A stretch of 39,194 nt of DNA. It comes from a virus. The notes under the pieces were generated by a model. That model was not told the origin of the DNA. It made no database searches and saw only the letters and a program-made list of their open reading frames with translations. The stretch lies in UHGV virus genome UHGV-0142770. One strand, given 5' to 3'. This document shows, piece by piece, positions 4,558 to 34,095 of this stretch. A program made the position numbers and the translations under genes. The stretch's first letter is position 1, and every line of letters starts with the position of its first letter.

Positions 4558-4572
4558 TTACCTTTCAGGTAA
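4558..4572. promoter_or_regulatory. Candidate repressor operator TTACCTTTCAGGTAA (TTACC-N5-GGTAA) in the divergent region between tail fibre and antirepressor operon
   Basis: Perfect 5-bp inverted arms with 5-bp spacer. The 16-mer ATTACCTTTCAGGTAA is identical to the site at 23446-23461. Confidence 0.5.
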
Positions 4573-4609
4573 TTTGCAAAACGTGCTGGATAGCAAACAA
4601 ATTATTTGA

Positions 4610-4629
4610 TACTGTATATTTATACAGTT
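4610..4629 (+). promoter_or_regulatory. LexA (SOS) box TACTGTATATTTATACAGTT upstream of the antirepressor operon
   Basis: CTGT at 4612-4615, 8-nt AT-rich spacer, ACAG at 4624-4627: matches the gamma-proteobacterial consensus CTGT-N8-ACAG. Sits about 20 nt upstream of the ATG at 4649. Confidence 0.8.
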
Positions 4630-4648
4630 ATTGCATGGAGAAGATAAG

Positions 4649-4906
4649 ATGCAGCAGTATCACTATCCACTGGAAGAGGGATTTACCGAAAGGATTCACA
4701 CGCCGGGAGGCGTCAGGTCACTGGTGGAGGGATCGCACTTGATGAAATTACTCCGGGATCTCGATAAGGATGGATTTAATGTCGATGGCCCACTTGCCGA
4801 ACTGACTGCACTGATTAACTACGTCACCAGCTCACAGATGTCTATGCAGGATCTGCAAACACATCTCGACTATTGTGCCGAACAATTACGAAAACAAACC
4901 AGATAA
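4649..4906 (+). CDS. Small protein homologous to the C-terminal domain of the downstream antirepressor; first gene of the LexA-controlled operon
   Basis: ATG 4649 with GGAG 8 nt upstream (track start 4631 is TTG). 85 aa. C-terminal ~60 aa aligns with the Ant C-terminus (DGFNVDGPLAELT...DLQTH vs DGHDVSGAAAELT...DIQTH). Confidence 0.6.
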   Translation: MQQYHYPLEEGFTERIHTPGGVRSLVEGSHLMKLLRDLDKDGFNVDGPLAELTALINYVTSSQMSMQDLQTHLDYCAEQLRKQTR

Positions 4907-4937
4907 GGTTTGTAATTACCAAATTGAGTGCTTATAT

Positions 4938-4952
4938 TTACCTTTGCGGTAA
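4938..4952. promoter_or_regulatory. Candidate repressor operator TTACCTTTGCGGTAA between the small ORF and ant
   Basis: Perfect TTACC-N5-GGTAA palindrome. Confidence 0.45.
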
Positions 4953-5045
4953 ATTTACATCGCACTCCTCTTGTGCCATAGTAATCGGGCACTGGCAAAA
5001 TCCAGTGCCGGGATTGGTCTCCCGGATTACTACAGAGGCACATAT

Positions 5046-5065
5046 GCCGCATAAGCGGTTTTTTT
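5046..5065 (+). terminator. Weak intrinsic terminator/attenuator between small ORF and ant
   Basis: Short GC stem (CCGC-ATAA-GCGG) followed by T7 run 5059-5065, preceded by two longer hairpins at 4988-5009 and 5008-5025. Confidence 0.4.
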
Positions 5066-5219
5066 ATGTGTAAAGCGCACCTATTCTATGGTGGGCTGTG
5101 TGGGGGCACCGAAAGGTGCGCCGGGTTCCTTTGTAGCCGGTAAGACCAACTCTGCACAGTTCACCACCATCTGATTGGTCTCAGCGGTGGTGATTAACCT
5201 AACTACAAAGGTGATCGCC

Positions 5220-21166: not shown

Positions 21167-21459
21167 TCCTGTTCACTGGCCTCTTTGGCCATCTTCAAAT
21201 ACTGTTCAGGGCAATGCGCCATAACGCGCTGAAACAGTTCCAGCGCCAGATTGCGTTGCCCCTCATTAAATGCCATTGCCATAGCGTCCATCGGTGAGAT
21301 AGCGGAAAACACACGGCCTTTCTCCAGCACCGACCAGACAACGCGACGCCCCTGTTCACTGCTCATGACAAAGCGAATGTCATCAATTTCACGCTGCGCC
21401 ATGTCACGTTGCTTACGGGCGTTTTCTTCTTTCAGTTGATCGTCTTCGTAATCTGTCAT
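21163..21459 (-). CDS. Small head-module protein (hypothetical)
   Basis: 98 aa, coupled to portal and scaffold genes by overlapping start/stop. Confidence 0.45.
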   Translation of the reverse strand: MTDYEDDQLKEENARKQRDMAQREIDDIRFVMSSEQGRRVVWSVLEKGRVFSAISPMDAMAMAFNEGQRNLALELFQRVMAHCPEQYLKMAKEASEQE

Positions 21460-23135
21460 TGTGATTGCCCACCCTGACCACTAACTGCATTCGCCATAGC
21501 TGACAAAACACTCGGATCCGAAGTTTTAGCTTCGCTTAGCGTCTTGGCACCCTGTGCCGCCGCCATCCCCATCGCCATCATTTGTTGCTGCTGTTGCTGC
21601 TGTGCCCGTTGCTGGCGAGCATGCTCAACCTGTTCCTGCGGAACAATGACGGTTGGAGACACTCCGGACATATCAGCGAATGCATCGATCGCCTGATCAA
21701 CGTTGAGTTTGTCGAGAGCTTCTGGTTTCGCTTGCGCAAGTTGACCAATGAAGTTAACCGTGGACGCCAGACTGGACAGGCCGATAGACTTCTGCGCCTG
21801 AGCCATGACGGAAATGTATTCGACCTTCAGGGGCATGCCTTCCATCGCGTCAGGCGGTGGCGGCAGCATGTTTTTACGCACCATCATCGAGAAAGCGCGG
21901 TCAATGAGAGGATTAAGACATTCGTCGTTCAGACGCTCCAGAACCGGCCCCAACATCAGAAGTTTTTCTTCTTTCATTTCGATCACCGCTTCAACAGGCA
22001 TCGAGCGGGTATTGATGTTCTGCAACATCATGAACAGATCGACAAAGTAGGCGCTGTTAATGATTTGACGAGTGTCCTGAATGTCTGCCACCAAATCTGC
22101 TGTACTGGGGTTAACCAGATAAGCAGGCCTGAAGCCATCCTGACCAGTAATCTGATCGATATACGTGATGTCGCCAGGAAGAAGGGAGGCGCGCTGATTC
22201 TTGAGGGAAGTCGGAGCAACCATCGGCGGATTGGTGGCTTTATCAATCAACTGCGACTTGCGCTTCTGGAGAAGCTGCAATGCCTTAACAGGTCCAAGCG
22301 CCAGCATACCCGGGCATGATGATCCATAAACATCTTCGCCGTTAACTTCCCAGCGCGGAGCCATAATTGGAAACTCATCGAATCCGGACTCACGCAACAA
22401 CTTGTCGTTATCGCCACCAACCTCGTAATAAACCGATTTGAATGGCTTGTTCTTGCTATCCAGCTTCGATGTATCGCGGTCAATGTTCGGGTAAACCGAA
22501 TGCATCACTTCAATCCACTTCTCGTAGGTGCCGCTTTCCCACATGCTTTTTACGGATTCGCTGACGTTATTTAGCCCGAACTCCTGAACAAGCTGACGAA
22601 CAGTCATAGAGAACTTGCGAAAACAGGTGTCCACACTGCCACGAGGTGAGTTAGCCAGGTAGTAACTGCCTATCGGGAATGGCATTGTGCGAATGATGTC
22701 CTCGTCATCCTCCAGCACTGCCATTGCACCAGTGCTGTATGTGCCGAGGCTTCCGTATAACTGCGGCAGCGACTGATAGAGATTCGACTTATTGAACATA
22801 TCGTTCATGCGGTTCTGCACCGCCTCAAGCCACAACTTAACAGGGCCATAATCCATCATTTCAGGATCTGGCGTAGCCAGGCGAAACCACGGACGCGCGG
22901 GGCTTGTGATGCCTGACATCATGCCGCTGGCGAGAGTGCGCGCCGCCATAGTCCCGGTCGAATCAATAATGCGTGTATTGCGTCGATCGTTACGGTTGAC
23001 CTCAGAAGTCAGAAAGCGGGAACCACGTGGGTTGATGTAATCACTCAACTCGCGCCAGTGCGGCTCGAACGACTGACGCTCGCTTTCAAGTTGTGCGAAC
23101 TGTTTGTTCAATCGCTCTTTAGTTGTTTCCGCCAT
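21456..23135 (-). CDS. Portal (head-tail connector) protein, T7 gp8-like
   Basis: 559 aa, first large gene after terminase; Gln-rich C-terminus (QQRAQQQQQQQMMAMGMAAAQ); size and position match podovirus portals. Confidence 0.8.
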   Translation of the reverse strand: MAETTKERLNKQFAQLESERQSFEPHWRELSDYINPRGSRFLTSEVNRNDRRNTRIIDSTGTMAARTLASGMMSGITSPARPWFRLATPDPEMMDYGPVKLWLEAVQNRMNDMFNKSNLYQSLPQLYGSLGTYSTGAMAVLEDDEDIIRTMPFPIGSYYLANSPRGSVDTCFRKFSMTVRQLVQEFGLNNVSESVKSMWESGTYEKWIEVMHSVYPNIDRDTSKLDSKNKPFKSVYYEVGGDNDKLLRESGFDEFPIMAPRWEVNGEDVYGSSCPGMLALGPVKALQLLQKRKSQLIDKATNPPMVAPTSLKNQRASLLPGDITYIDQITGQDGFRPAYLVNPSTADLVADIQDTRQIINSAYFVDLFMMLQNINTRSMPVEAVIEMKEEKLLMLGPVLERLNDECLNPLIDRAFSMMVRKNMLPPPPDAMEGMPLKVEYISVMAQAQKSIGLSSLASTVNFIGQLAQAKPEALDKLNVDQAIDAFADMSGVSPTVIVPQEQVEHARQQRAQQQQQQQMMAMGMAAAQGAKTLSEAKTSDPSVLSAMANAVSGQGGQSQ

Positions 23136-23356: not shown

Positions 23357-23446
23357 ATCAATGACTCCGTACGCAATTAAATTATTACCAATTTAACCAC
23401 ATATGATTTATTTATCGTAGATAGTTGACATTTAACGCACAAATTA

Positions 23447-23461
23447 TTACCTTTCAGGTAA
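23447..23461. promoter_or_regulatory. Candidate repressor operator TTACCTTTCAGGTAA, 17 bp downstream of a TTGACA hexamer (23425-23430)
   Basis: Perfect palindrome, identical 16-mer to the site at 4557-4572, between the portal operon start and the tRNA. Confidence 0.5.
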
Positions 23462-23783
23462 GCAAAGAGTTCATTCCGGTTATTAACCTGACTGGCTTGT
23501 CGTTAAATTGAACAGGTGGAGTGAGCTTTTATTTTGAGCAGTACGGCGTATGGCACATGCGCCGATAGCGGTCTGGATACGTTTAAGGGGCACCCTCCCT
23601 TGCTCGGGCAAACGAACCAGGTAGCCGGAATGTGCAAGTCGAGCGGTTTTATTCCGCGCACGGGGATTCACCATCCCGGCGATTCGGTGTGACGCCTCGG
23701 AAGAGACGAGGGTACAACGATGAGAGCATTTATGGAGCCGCGACAAAGTGTGGTGCCTTAACAGGCTAAGTGCTCTCAGCGTT

Positions 23784-23860
23784 GTGGCATTAGCTCAGTT
23801 GGACAGAGCAACCGCCTTCTAAGCGGTTGGTCGCAGGTTCGAATCCTGCATGCCACGCCA
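23784..23860 (+). tRNA. tRNA-Arg (anticodon UCU), phage-encoded
   Basis: 77 nt cloverleaf folded by hand: acceptor GTGGCAT/ATGCCAC, D-arm GCTC...GAGC, anticodon stem ACCGC/GCGGT with loop CTTCTAA (TCT at 23818-23820), T-arm GCAGG-TTCGAAT-CCTGC, discriminator G and encoded CCA. Closely resembles enterobacterial argU. Confidence 0.9.
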
Positions 23861-23903
23861 GAATCACGCCTAAGGACCGTGATGCCAGAAGTTCCAGGTG
23901 CTT

Positions 23904-23946
23904 GGCGGTGATAGTTTCCCTTGAAGTACTATCACCGCCCTTTTTA
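23904..23946 (+). terminator. Intrinsic terminator downstream of tRNA-Arg
   Basis: 11-bp stem GGCGGTGATAG/CTATCACCGCC (23904-23914 and 23929-23939) followed by a T-run at 23941-23945. Confidence 0.75.
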
Positions 23947-24023
23947 CAGCAGGACGCCATTGCGATGACTTCATGCTGTAAACCCGTACAGCCACGGAAG
24001 GCATAACTCATTGCTTCCAGTTC

Positions 24024-24046
24024 GCCCGGTTCGCCGGGCATTTTTT
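24024..24046 (+). terminator. Second intrinsic terminator (UUCG tetraloop)
   Basis: Stem GCCCGG/CCGGGC with loop TTCG, followed by TTTTTT (24041-24046). Confidence 0.75.
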
Positions 24047-24081
24047 GCCTGATGACCACAAATTACCTTAAAGGTATAATC

Positions 24082-24900
24082 ATGAAAAACTTTAAGGTAA
24101 TTAGTATGTTCGAATCGTTCAAAGAGCTGTTTTTATCTACTGCCAATACTGCCGTGCATCGAGCCAAAAACCCTGTGCTTGGTGCTTTTGTTATGTCCTG
24201 GTGCGCCTTCAACTGGAAATCAATTCTTTATCTATTTTTTAGCAAATCAAACATAATAGATAAAATTTCATATATCTCAGATAACAGCACATGGAAAACT
24301 GTTATGTTTTATCCATGCTTATCTGTAATTGCTATCTGCTGCCTATTACCATGGGTAAACAATATCATTAACGTATGGCAAGCAAAGCCTCTTGATAATA
24401 ATGACTCAATCGAAAATCACCTGAAGGCAAGAAAAATCCAGCGTGAAACAAGACTGCAGAGGTTATTGGCTAAAAAAGATGTTACATACGACAAAGTTAA
24501 GACTGGCGCGGAAAAAGACATCCAAGAGATGAAAGAAGAGATTATTCGATCAAAGAATAGTATGGGGGAATTGACTGCCGAGTTGAAAGCTAAAGATGAC
24601 GAATTGAGATCCGCCAGTGCTCAGTTAGCAGCTCTAAATCATTCATTAAAAGAGATATCGGAAACTCTTGGAAGAATGAATGAGGCATATAAGACCCTCC
24701 AAAATGATTTCGACGAATACAAACTCAAATACCCTGAAAAATCTCAAATAAAAAGCCTTGCACTTGGCAACGGCCAAACAATTAGCAACTTTTTGGAGCA
24801 ACACAACTTATCCGGATTAAAATCTGGTAAGCCAAACGTTTTTAATAACTTTGGTGTTCTATCTGGATTATCAGGTTTCGAGGATAAAAATAAAGACTAA
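24082..24900 (+). CDS. AT-rich moron: membrane plus coiled-coil protein of unknown function (candidate exclusion/abortive-infection gene)
   Basis: ATG 24082 (alternatives 24052, 24106). Two hydrophobic segments (LGAFVMSWCAFNW; VMFYPCLSVIAICCLLPWV) then a long Lys/Glu-rich coiled coil. Opposite strand to the late operon; stop overlaps the terL stop. Preceded by an imperfect TTACC-N5-GGTAT site (24063-24077) and TATAAT (24075-24080). Confidence 0.6.
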   Translation: MKNFKVISMFESFKELFLSTANTAVHRAKNPVLGAFVMSWCAFNWKSILYLFFSKSNIIDKISYISDNSTWKTVMFYPCLSVIAICCLLPWVNNIINVWQAKPLDNNDSIENHLKARKIQRETRLQRLLAKKDVTYDKVKTGAEKDIQEMKEEIIRSKNSMGELTAELKAKDDELRSASAQLAALNHSLKEISETLGRMNEAYKTLQNDFDEYKLKYPEKSQIKSLALGNGQTISNFLEQHNLSGLKSGKPNVFNNFGVLSGLSGFEDKNKD

Positions 24901-26372
24901 GCATATGGATCGTACTCGGTAAGCGCCTTGCCTTGCTGGTTCTGCTGACCGGGAATTCGCAGACGCTTCGACACAGGGAACGCAAACGTCAGCAGTAGCG
25001 CATCGCCTTTACCAGGAGAACGCCCAAGCCGCTCTTTGATATCTTCCTTCGGTTCGATAACGATTTTACCGTCCACTCGAACTTTGTACTCTGCCGCCGA
25101 CAGGTCGTCCGCTGTTTCCTGGTCATCCAGCATGCCGCCCAGCCTCAGCCATGTCTTACATGAGTTGAACATCTCCCCACGCTTGTTAAGCATCTGCGGG
25201 TCAGTGGACGCACCGCCGAACGGAACAAGTTGCCATGTACGTCCCCAGCCATCACCGATTGACTTCAAACCGGTTCCGTAACCGAAGTCGATGAACACCG
25301 CGTCAGCCTGGTACTGGTCTTCAAAGTCAGCGATACGCTTCGCCATAATCAGATCGTCGGTGGTCTTGTTGCCGGTCCACAGCACCTTACTGTGCAGCCC
25401 CTGCCGCAGGTATATCACCGCGTCATCAACACCGGAGTATGCAGGGTCAACGCCGATTATCACCGGAGCATGTGCCACCTGCGCAGCAGTTACCACCCGT
25501 TTCATTGCCTCGTCAGTAAGACCGGTAGGGATAAACTGCAATTCAGATGCATCAGGGAATATGCCGCGCACACGGATTTTAACGAAGTCGCTGTCTTCCC
25601 CGTAGTCATCAACCCATTTCTGTAATTGCTGCTTGTTAGTACCTTCCACCGTCCGGCTGTCAATCTGTGCAGTTTTCCAGCGGTGTTTATATTTGCGGAA
25701 ACATTCGCGGAAACGCCCGGTGTTACGTGTCGGGTTTCCGAACGCCACCCAGATAATCTCAGTGTCTTCGTCCGTAAGCGCACCCTCAGCAACTTCCCAC
25801 ACCAGATCCGCAATGTTCGACGCTTCATCGAATACCACGATGATGCGTTTGCGCTCATTGTGTAATCCGGCGAATGCCTCAGTGTTGTGCTCAGACCAGG
25901 GGATTGCGTCAGCTCGCCACCGCTTGTCGTGCCCAGGGTCATTGCTGTACATCGCGGTAGCGGTACAGGTAAACCAGTCTTTCGTGATAGCAAGGTTCGA
26001 CCACTTGATAATTTCCGGCCAGGTCTTCGTTCGTAGCTGGTTGTCGGTGTTGGCGGTCACCACGACCTTACAATCCTCGCAAGTGGACATGCCCCAGTTG
26101 ATCAGCATTGAGATGAATGCGGATTTACCAATACCGTGACCAGAAGCGCGTGCCAGCATAAGCGGCTGATAGCGCGTCTCTGGATTCTGCAGGTGATCAC
26201 GTATCTCTCGGAACGCATCAGCCTGCCACTGACGTGGACCGGTGGCATGTGCCAGTTCAGTCCCCTCTTCCCCCCACGGGAACGCATAGAGGGCATAGCC
26301 AAGCGGATCGTGAGTGAACCCTGCAATATCCTCGATCAACTGCTCTTCAGGAGATAACGCTGCATCTGTCAC
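24897..26372 (-). CDS. terL: Terminase large subunit (TerL)
   Basis: 491 aa after terS with ATGA overlap; N-terminal ATPase region with Walker-A-like GHGIGKS and C-terminal nuclease-like region with conserved acidic residues (VVFDEA, GVDPAYSG). Confidence 0.9.
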   Translation of the reverse strand: MTDAALSPEEQLIEDIAGFTHDPLGYALYAFPWGEEGTELAHATGPRQWQADAFREIRDHLQNPETRYQPLMLARASGHGIGKSAFISMLINWGMSTCEDCKVVVTANTDNQLRTKTWPEIIKWSNLAITKDWFTCTATAMYSNDPGHDKRWRADAIPWSEHNTEAFAGLHNERKRIIVVFDEASNIADLVWEVAEGALTDEDTEIIWVAFGNPTRNTGRFRECFRKYKHRWKTAQIDSRTVEGTNKQQLQKWVDDYGEDSDFVKIRVRGIFPDASELQFIPTGLTDEAMKRVVTAAQVAHAPVIIGVDPAYSGVDDAVIYLRQGLHSKVLWTGNKTTDDLIMAKRIADFEDQYQADAVFIDFGYGTGLKSIGDGWGRTWQLVPFGGASTDPQMLNKRGEMFNSCKTWLRLGGMLDDQETADDLSAAEYKVRVDGKIVIEPKEDIKERLGRSPGKGDALLLTFAFPVSKRLRIPGQQNQQGKALTEYDPYA

Positions 26373-33510: not shown

Positions 33511-34095
33511 ATGAAAAGTATCCAGGACGTCCGCAGGCAAAATCTCAACGACTTGATCGACCGTGAATTCAATGGTGTTCAGACGCGGATGGCAGAAAAA
33601 CTTGGAACTCAGGCAAATCTGGTAAACCGCTGGGCTCTTGGCAAGAAGGTTATCGGCGACCAGGTTGCGCGAAAAATTGAAGCTGCCGCCAATAAACCCC
33701 GTAACTGGCTTGATATCGATCGCTCGCTTTCTCAGGAAGGTTTTCAGCCTGTCGGCCCAAGCGACATTGGTCAGCTGGCAGCTCACAACCTGGAACGCTG
33801 GATGAGTGAAAGCCGCGACCTTTCAACTCAGGGAAAACTTCACCGCGCATCCGGCGTCGCCCAGGTGACAATAAGCCGCCTGTTAAACAATGAGGTCAGC
33901 GTTTCCATTTCCACCCTGGAGAATGTTGCATCTGCATTCGGGCGTCACGGATATGAACTACTGATCCATCCGCATGACCCTGCAACTATCAACTATGACC
34001 GCTCGCGCTACGCATTGTTACCTGAAACAGAGAAGGCAAAGATCGAAAGTTACATTGAATTTGTCATCAACCAGAACGAAAAAAACAAACAATAA
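33511..34095 (+). CDS. CI-like repressor, non-cleavable type (XRE HTH, no S24 peptidase motifs)
   Basis: 194 aa; N-terminal HTH (VQTRMAEKLGTQANLVNRWALGKK) like lambdoid repressors; C-terminal half lacks the Ser/Lys autopeptidase signature; divergent from cro and followed by a terminator. Confidence 0.65.
   Translation: MKSIQDVRRQNLNDLIDREFNGVQTRMAEKLGTQANLVNRWALGKKVIGDQVARKIEAAANKPRNWLDIDRSLSQEGFQPVGPSDIGQLAAHNLERWMSESRDLSTQGKLHRASGVAQVTISRLLNNEVSVSISTLENVASAFGRHGYELLIHPHDPATINYDRSRYALLPETEKAKIESYIEFVINQNEKNKQ

Follow-up and report, generated by a model that had tools for sequence, protein, structure and literature searches.

The gene between tRNA-Arg and terL

The virus genome UHGV-0142770 (39,194 nucleotides; "the window" below is the whole of this stretch) is, as judged from its sequence, a phiV10/epsilon15-like (Uetakevirus) genome of the Escherichia coli prophage type. 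Its terS, terL, portal, and head genes, all on the minus strand, share 96–99% identity with those of phiV10/epsilon15-like podoviruses. Set within these minus-strand late genes is a plus-strand island, which begins at the promoter and operator of a tRNA-Arg gene and contains a single AT-rich gene of the PHROG 4780 family, the subject of this analysis. A preliminary description made from the sequence alone had seen in this gene a moron (a phage accessory gene) whose product, with two transmembrane (TM) helices and a coiled coil, was a candidate for superinfection exclusion (Sie) or abortive infection (Abi). The locus comprises the following features, coding lengths being given in amino acids (aa).

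23425–23460, plus strand: promoter-like TTGACA-N17-TACCTT with the repressor operator TACCTTTCAGGTA (23448–23460), facing a ∼320-nt leader and the tRNA
23784–23860, plus strand: tRNA-Arg (anticodon TCT)
23904–23945, plus strand: hairpin 1 followed by CUUUUU, terminator-like (−22.3 kcal/mol, z = −6.1)
24024–24046, plus strand: hairpin 2 (GCCCGG-TTCG-CCGGGC) followed by AUUUUUU, terminator-like (−12.7 kcal/mol)
24052–24080, plus strand: predicted sigma70-type promoter, −35 ATGACC (24052–24057), 17-bp spacer, −10 TATAAT (24075–24080)
24063–24077: predicted prophage-repressor operator TTACCTTAAAGGTAT (core TACC-N5-GGTA, 24064–24076), in the promoter spacer and overlapping the −10 element
24087–24099: second, weaker operator-like site AAACTTTAAGGTA with 2 mismatches, ∼23 bp downstream of the first (centre to centre), covering the Shine-Dalgarno sequence
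24106–24900, plus strand: coding sequence of 264 aa (PHROG 4780), placed by the conserved start and the family alignment
24106–24585, plus strand: conserved N-terminal module (aa 1–160), a ∼95-residue head with the family motif and two hydrophobic helices (the first marginal, the second good), then a conserved juxtamembrane helix
24586–24897, plus strand: variable C-terminal module (coiled coil and disordered N/S/G-rich tail), exchanged by recombination
24897–26372, minus strand: terL, converging on the gene with overlapping stop codons; its last ∼25 codons lie within the recombining segment
23150–23356, minus strand: 68-aa gene, together with the portal gene on the side of the locus away from terL
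21456–23135, minus strand: portal gene

The gene had been taken to span the plus-strand open reading frame (ORF) 24052–24900. This ORF of 282 aa is present, but its first ATG is not the start codon. We aligned the upstream regions of homologues, at first from different genomic contexts and then as 67 distinct regions. The ATG at 24106 and its AAGG Shine-Dalgarno sequence (24094–24097) are kept in all 67, whereas the two upstream ATGs (24052 and 24082) show no such conservation, the one at 24052 being part of the −35 hexamer. Homologues are mostly 264 aa long with the N terminus MLES or MFES, and PHROG 4780 matches from residue 19 onward (residues 19–282 of the 282-aa ORF against profile positions 1–267 of 275; E = 4e-137). 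The start is therefore placed at 24106. In the PGAP annotation, the product appears in a 272-aa form (WP_000787773.1).

Other parts of the preliminary picture were borne out. With a GC content of 0.365 (window 0.487, terL 0.544), the gene ranks lowest among all ORFs of the window. It lies convergently between the tRNA and terL, its stop codon TAA overlapping the terL stop TAG at bases 24897–24900. The two terminators described ahead of it correspond to the two hairpins with their T-runs, and the TATAAT and the operator-like site stand at its 5′ end. AGA accounts for 4 of the 8 arginine codons; the idea of tRNA-Arg(UCU) and the gene as a codon-supply unit was dropped, because tail genes also use AGA often and the tRNA occurs with every type of cargo.

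The gene has a predicted promoter of its own, which travels with it: the −35 core TGAC and the −10 element (TAnAAT or TATACT) are conserved with the gene in every genomic context represented by the 67 upstream regions. A plus-strand terminator-like site was not found within 24900–25200, and the hairpins are all upstream of the gene. The label of moron thus fits in patchy presence, a promoter of its own, foreign base composition, opposite-strand orientation, and the lack of a partner gene, but not with regard to a downstream terminator.

A 13-nt perfect inverted repeat, AATTACCTTAAAG and CTTTAAGGTAATT, occupies 24061–24101 (−14.7 kcal/mol, z = −3.75). In read-through RNA, it would pair the operator region with the Shine-Dalgarno sequence and could block translation of that RNA. 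As the main explanation of the palindrome, an RNA hairpin hiding the Shine-Dalgarno sequence was rejected, because the predicted transcript would begin downstream of the 5′ arm.

Ahead of the tRNA-Arg gene is an untranslated leader of ∼320 nt, and the stretch 23357–23783 is 75–77% conserved in Klebsiella phages. In the equivalent region, epsilon15 carries annotated RNase III and IHF sites. An 89-aa ORF (23790–24059, minus strand) runs antisense to the tRNA and the hairpins, and its equivalent is annotated as p04 in phiV10. Given its overlap with the tRNA and a reading frame that is interrupted in the Klebsiella version of this stretch, it is probably no gene.

The repressor operator and its predicted regulon

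The palindrome TACCTTAAAGGTA at 24064–24076 sits within the promoter spacer of the gene, between the −35 and −10 elements, with its centre ∼17 bp upstream of the predicted start. The motif TACC-N5-GGTA occurs 11 times in the window versus 0.2 times expected, and none of 100 shuffles reaches 11. The related pattern TACCT-N3-AGGTA, with one mismatch allowed, likewise gives 11 window sites versus 1.2 expected. The operator sites, named by position, and the repressor gene are arranged as follows.

24064: in the promoter of the PHROG 4780 gene
23448: beside the TTGACA-N17-TACCTT promoter facing the tRNA
26984: at the start of terS
33425 and 33442: between the HTH_3 repressor gene and a divergent 76-aa ORF that is cro-like by position only
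33057: beyond the cro terminator
34154 and 34216: 62 bp apart, on either side of PL, the TTGACA promoter of the leftward recombination operon
31031 and 31093: 62 bp apart, on either side of an internal promoter
4559 and 4939: upstream of the isrK/C4 antisense-RNA region
33511–34095, plus strand: prophage repressor gene (HTH_3), homologue of SPC32H Rep (PDB 5D50, E = 4e-42)

The RefSeq record of epsilon15 (NC_004775.2) annotates ATTACC-N5-GGTAAT as "protein_bind: repressor, lysogeny" at seven sites, including ones before terS and gp3. Every Uetakevirus locus examined has the operator at the tRNA promoter, and the epsilon15 record labels the equivalent site "repressor". We presume that the HTH_3 repressor is the protein that binds the operator in the window. 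SPC32H Rep, as summarised in PMC9638917, occupies palindromic sites as a tetramer, which an antirepressor takes apart. In phage ZX5, overexpression of the equivalent repressor abolished lytic transcription (PMC9782041).

On these grounds of motif and position, we identify the operator-like site in the promoter of the gene as the operator of the prophage repressor. Its placement between −35 and −10 is a repressing position and predicts that the gene is silent in the lysogen; we infer that repression holds in the lysogen and that infection or induction turns the gene on. As the tRNA promoter carries an operator as well, the whole plus-strand island, from promoter to cargo, looks repressor-controlled.

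The exact operator lies between −35 and −10 in all Uetakevirus copies checked but one (L170). Homologues in the same slot of Klebsiella and Cronobacter, with 23–25% protein identity, keep the exact operator at the same promoter position, indicating that the operator–promoter arrangement is ancient. Outside the Uetakeviruses, the left half-site is decayed or the operator is absent, and the −10 element is retained.

The operators are spread over the genome ahead of early, late, and accessory units, with two pairs exactly 62 bp apart, a distribution more like that of P1 than that of lambda. The isrK RNA (4989–5065) and the C4 antisense RNA (5084–5171) are Rfam matches above the gathering score. 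The isrK/C4 stretch (4559–5171), with the operators at 4559 and 4939 ahead of it, suggests immI antirepressor control of the P1/P22 type under the primary repressor.

A modular family in a cargo slot

The tRNA–terL interval is a slot for alternative cargo. We anchored 78 Uetakevirus contigs of the E. coli type on terL (slot loci L090–L169) and found six alternative cargo genes in the slot, all convergent with terL.

Phage_gp49_66 (phiV10 p03 type): 32 contigs
PHROG 4780 family: 18 contigs
PHROG 4846: 16 contigs
PHROG 27507: 7 contigs
Tad2-like, PF11195 (E = 3e-24), a candidate anti-Thoeris protein: 3 contigs
PHROG 3163: 1 contig

Four of the five other families begin right after hairpin 2 with a ribosome-binding site only and without a promoter, the exception being the single PHROG 3163 locus. 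Such promoterless cargo must be read from the upstream, Rep-controlled tRNA promoter. Among the slot cargo, only the PHROG 4780 family brings its own promoter and operator. The gene is present or absent among close relatives (the phiV10 slot holds a different gene), and 37 of 5426 complete E. coli genomes carry at least 80% of a 1,061-bp query made up of the gene and its upstream region. Prophage contigs L035, L061, and L083, intact in other respects, carry truncated copies of 62, 201, and 100 aa, respectively, indicating that the gene is occasionally lost.

The family is large. An exhaustive profile search returned 1740 representatives at E ≤ 1e-3 and 301 clusters (50% identity) at E ≤ 1e-10. 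Among the 150 family matches listed, most are of similar length and most are aligned from residue 1. All members with a name in the source are called "hypothetical protein", and all come from Enterobacterales. The claim that no family could be recognised holds for Pfam, NCBIfam, and PADLOC but not for PHROG 4780. Distant members match this PHROG and the related PHROGs 13369 and 35327; none of the three has an assigned function, so that membership names the family and explains nothing. A scan of genome contigs gave no confirmed matches.

Most relatives, including very distant alleles, occupy the same slot in Uetakevirus-like prophages of Escherichia, Salmonella, Klebsiella, and Cronobacter. Copies in lambdoid phages have a terL 3′ fragment directly downstream and ∼170 nt of the upstream sequence of the slot, showing that they evidently escaped from the Uetakevirus slot. 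Such terL fragments, 50–140 codons long, stand beside the gene in several non-Uetakevirus phages (L003, L048, L050–L053, and L059). A minus-strand peptide (..MASCCKKGG..) had been considered as the cause of the ∼170-nt upstream conservation in Klebsiella phages and was dropped in favour of hitch-hiking of the slot flanks, because terL 3′ fragments also travel with the gene. Outside the slot, each copy stands alone and is oriented against its neighbours. They were found at these sites.

Klebsiella lambdoid phages: between replication and nin genes
Pantoea prophage: adjoining int–xis
Klebsiella phage-plasmid: beside parA
Cronobacter: intact copy amid genes typical of cryptic-prophage remnants
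Pantoea P2-like prophage: P0192, a distant homologue (E = 2e-20 against the family profile) that carries its own promoter and lies between the genes for gpA and the portal protein

The P2 gpA–gpQ (old/tin) locus is a hotspot of anti-phage defence (Rousset et al. 2022, PMC9122126). Further copies in the P2 hotspot were searched for, and none was found. Upstream of the homologue there (L172, 6845–6885) is a repeat array of about six tandem CTCTTGA copies, which are TTGAC-like. A conserved partner gene was seen at none of the loci examined.

In an alignment of 56 distant members, Trp-32 and Asn-36 are invariant, and Arg-19, Phe-28, Trp-37, Pro-70, and Pro-82 are nearly so; the conserved motif of the head is ER-x-KNP-x-GAF-x-SW-x-x-FNW. 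The final AlphaFold2 model, built from this alignment, has a predicted local distance difference test score (pLDDT) of 84.6 and replaces a first model from 27 close homologues (pLDDT 64.5). It assigns helices to residues 2–19, 23–35, 37–45, 50–60, 63–208 (continuous, ∼145 residues), and 210–232. Of the two TM helices proposed earlier, the second is plausible (segment 63–92, +1.8 kcal/mol on the Hessa scale, family median 1.65), whereas the first is marginal (segment 23–45, +4.4 kcal/mol, family median 3.27). Lys and Arg are enriched ahead of segment 1 and beyond segment 2, which favours an N-in/C-in hairpin with a cytoplasmic stalk.

The long charged coiled coil of the preliminary description agrees with the 63–208 helix of the model, a heptad periodicity in residues 100–215 (p ∼0.005), and 39% charged residues. 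The tail described as Gly/Ser/Asn-rich proved to be N/S/G/L-rich and disordered, with a pLDDT of <50 from residue 238. The product is probably anchored in the inner membrane as an oligomeric coiled-coil protein, the likeliest topology being N-in/C-in. A membrane anchor joined to a long helix is also the architecture of i-spanin and of some holin regulators.

Searches for a relative of known function gave little. Scans of the window protein against Pfam, NCBIfam, and PADLOC, and of 56 family members against Pfam and 10 against PADLOC, returned coiled-coil noise only; with PADLOC-DB v2.0.0, these were weak matches of the coiled-coil region to the SMC-like models DndD, LmuB, and JetC. SLATT and similar Pfam families with two TM helices were not matched at E ≤ 10 by the window protein or at E ≤ 0.001 by the 56 members. 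Sequence searches of the PDB with two family profiles found coiled-coil proteins only, and fold searches with the structure model found no match. Structure prediction and remote homology searching together gave no match to any characterised family, only coiled-coil proteins. A literature search found no paper that mentions WP_000787773 or phrog_4780. Although catalogued as PHROG 4780, the family lacks a described function, a Pfam model, and any structural relative.

The two halves of the protein have different histories. When 89 family proteins taken from retrieved loci are clustered at 40% identity, residues 1–160 fall into 3 clusters and the remainder into 20. The L036 allele shares 92% identity with the window protein in residues 1–160 and 27% beyond. 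At the nucleotide level, identity to L036 is 97–100% up to ∼24420, 30–50% at ∼24570–24970, and >90% after ∼24975, so that the exchanged segment takes in the last ∼25 codons of terL. Sharp breakpoints flanking a tract of low identity indicate recombinational module swapping and not merely relaxed constraint. The C-terminal modules, otherwise unrelated, mostly end in a Lys/Asn/Asp-rich motif (DKNKD, DKDKD, KNIKD, RKNKK, or PKNK), a common end that hints at a shared terminal function.

Taken together, the sequence data make a solid case for an old, mobile, single-gene accessory cassette that in its home phage group is predicted to belong to the repressor regulon. As a moron, or accessory phage gene, within a cargo hotspot, the cassette is of a familiar type; what sets it apart appears to be direct control by the prophage repressor.

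Possible roles of the protein

We picture an autonomous accessory cassette, long resident in the Uetakevirus tRNA–terL slot, that is built from terminators, one gene, and a promoter whose spacer contains the operator. The anchor or effector would be the conserved hydrophobic head at the N terminus, and the swapped C-terminal coiled coil and tail would form the specificity module. Rep would hold the gene off in the lysogen, and infection or induction would switch it on. During growth of its own phage, the protein would then act at the membrane to exclude competitors or abort their infection; in phages without the operator, exclusion would be constitutive.

C-terminal swapping, the solitary opposite-strand placement at accessory sites of several types of temperate phage, the P2-hotspot example, and retention in an apparent remnant all point to conflict between mobile elements. 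The gene thus probably serves in phage conflict and, with the repressor's binding site in its promoter, would stay silent in the lysogen. For the Uetakeviruses, the repressor wiring and the Tad2-like cargo suggest a product meant for the lytic phase. Tentatively and at less than even odds, we favour a membrane protein of the exclusion or abortive type, which would protect the cell while its own phage multiplies and would be constitutive where the operator is lost. It is doubtful that the family goes further and represents a new, widespread class of single-gene, modular anti-phage proteins, in which a ∼95-residue membrane head with a swappable coiled-coil sensor would, in the Uetakeviruses, be deployed only when repression lifts, as an exclusion system coupled to induction or infection, and would guard the lytic cycle rather than the resting lysogen.

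Several points weigh against such an exclusion protein. The exclusion or defence role proposed at the outset is plausible, but the PADLOC, hhalign, and fold searches revealed no homology or fold match to a characterised exclusion or defence protein; in hhalign comparisons, the 56-sequence profile aligned to P22 SieA, P22 SieB, and lambda RexB with a probability of 0.3–0.4%, and SieB was not among the Pfam matches either. The marginal first hydrophobic segment leaves predicted membrane integration and topology less secure. Control by the repressor argues against a classical, lysogen-expressed defence gene. Because one alternative cargo is Tad2-like, the slot may instead collect genes that aid early lytic growth. 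Some copies of the gene are truncated pseudogenes, and the placement in the P2 hotspot rests on a single locus.

A serious rival, although in itself rather unlikely, is a role in counter-defence or host takeover, in which an early lytic protein disarms a host membrane function, such as an envelope-associated defence, and the C-terminal module tracks host targets. The operator in the promoter predicts expression at infection or induction only, as this role would demand, and four of the five other cargo families are promoterless behind the Rep-controlled tRNA promoter, one of them being Tad2-like. Modular diversification fits an arms race in either direction. However, outside the Uetakeviruses the gene is solitary, with its own promoter and without an operator, at sites of the lysogen type (integrase, P2 old/tin, and an apparent cryptic remnant), where an anti-defence gene would be of little use, and the protein has no similarity to any known anti-defence protein.

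These same sites, the P2 defence hotspot among them, would suit a classical moron, that is, a membrane Abi or Sie protein expressed in the lysogen for continuous protection, as would the opposite-strand cassette with its own promoter and upstream terminators and the foreign base composition. We nevertheless judge this role unlikely. The exact operator stands in a repressing position in the window and, with the exception of L170, in every Uetakevirus copy checked, and known Uetakevirus repressors, when present, shut off lytic transcription (PMC9782041), so that the gene is predicted to be silent where such a moron would be needed; a match to PADLOC or to Sie/Rex proteins was not found either. 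Quite improbable is a dispensable helper of the phage's own lytic cycle that acts on the envelope (lysis timing, cell division, or membrane state) and plays no part in phage conflict. Predicted control by the repressor and the i-spanin-like or holin-regulator-like combination of membrane anchor and long helix agree with it, but the epsilon15 annotation places a complete Uetakevirus lysis cassette elsewhere, and many fully functional relatives, phiV10 among them, do without the gene. Moreover, non-lytic remnants and phages of unrelated types retain it, and swapping of C-terminal modules would be unexpected for a housekeeping helper. The remaining probability belongs to functions outside these four. 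The transcriptome of the LF82 "Gally" prophage was set aside, as Gally is P22-like and not relevant here.

The favoured exclusion protein can be compared with several known systems. SieB of P22 and lambda and SieA of P22 are, like the gene described here, encoded by single small opposite-strand units with their own promoters in temperate phages of enterobacteria. Sie proteins combine N-terminal hydrophobic helices with a cytoplasmic remainder and act on other phages, as is predicted for the window protein. However, there is no detectable homology to SieB or SieA (hhalign probability <1%), and Sie proteins lack both the 145-residue coiled-coil stalk and the swappable C-terminal module. Furthermore, Sie genes are expressed in the lysogen, whereas the promoter in the window carries a repressor operator. 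Imm and Sp of T4 are small inner-membrane exclusion proteins made early in infection and would follow the same predicted logic, the analogy being one of timing only. Both are much smaller and have no coiled coil. Any resemblance to T4 Imm/Sp or to the P22 Sie proteins would thus be one of logic, not ancestry.

Among cargo hotspots, the P2 gpA–gpQ site (old, tin, and defence systems) is where the distant homologue P0192 stands alone with its own promoter. Unlike that cargo, the window copy resides in a different type of phage and is predicted to be repressor-controlled, and the family is not matched by validated PADLOC systems. The TERi locus of Listeria combines a conserved promoter with opposite-strand defence genes that alternate (bioRxiv 10.1101/2025.02.27.640495). 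Both TERi and the Uetakevirus slot are conserved accessory positions, on the opposite strand amid lytic genes, and both hold alternating, unrelated cargo. In contrast, the TERi promoter is constitutive, and the encoded proteins are small and soluble and have no homology to the window protein. In the Uetakevirus slot, the PHROG 4780 family alone brings a promoter of its own, and the other cargo genes depend on the upstream tRNA promoter.

The repressor motif of the epsilon15 type is now shown at 11 sites across a phiV10-like genome, and the tRNA–terL slot of the Uetakeviruses emerges as a cargo hotspot, apparently repressor-controlled, in which six gene families alternate, one of them Tad2-like. 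If a role in phage conflict holds true, a large unannotated family (at least 301 clusters at 50% identity, without a Pfam model) would join the phage exclusion and defence genes. The proposed split of the protein into effector and specificity modules is testable by domain swaps. The repressor wiring raises the little-studied question of whether temperate phages reserve some protective or counter-defence genes for the lytic phase.

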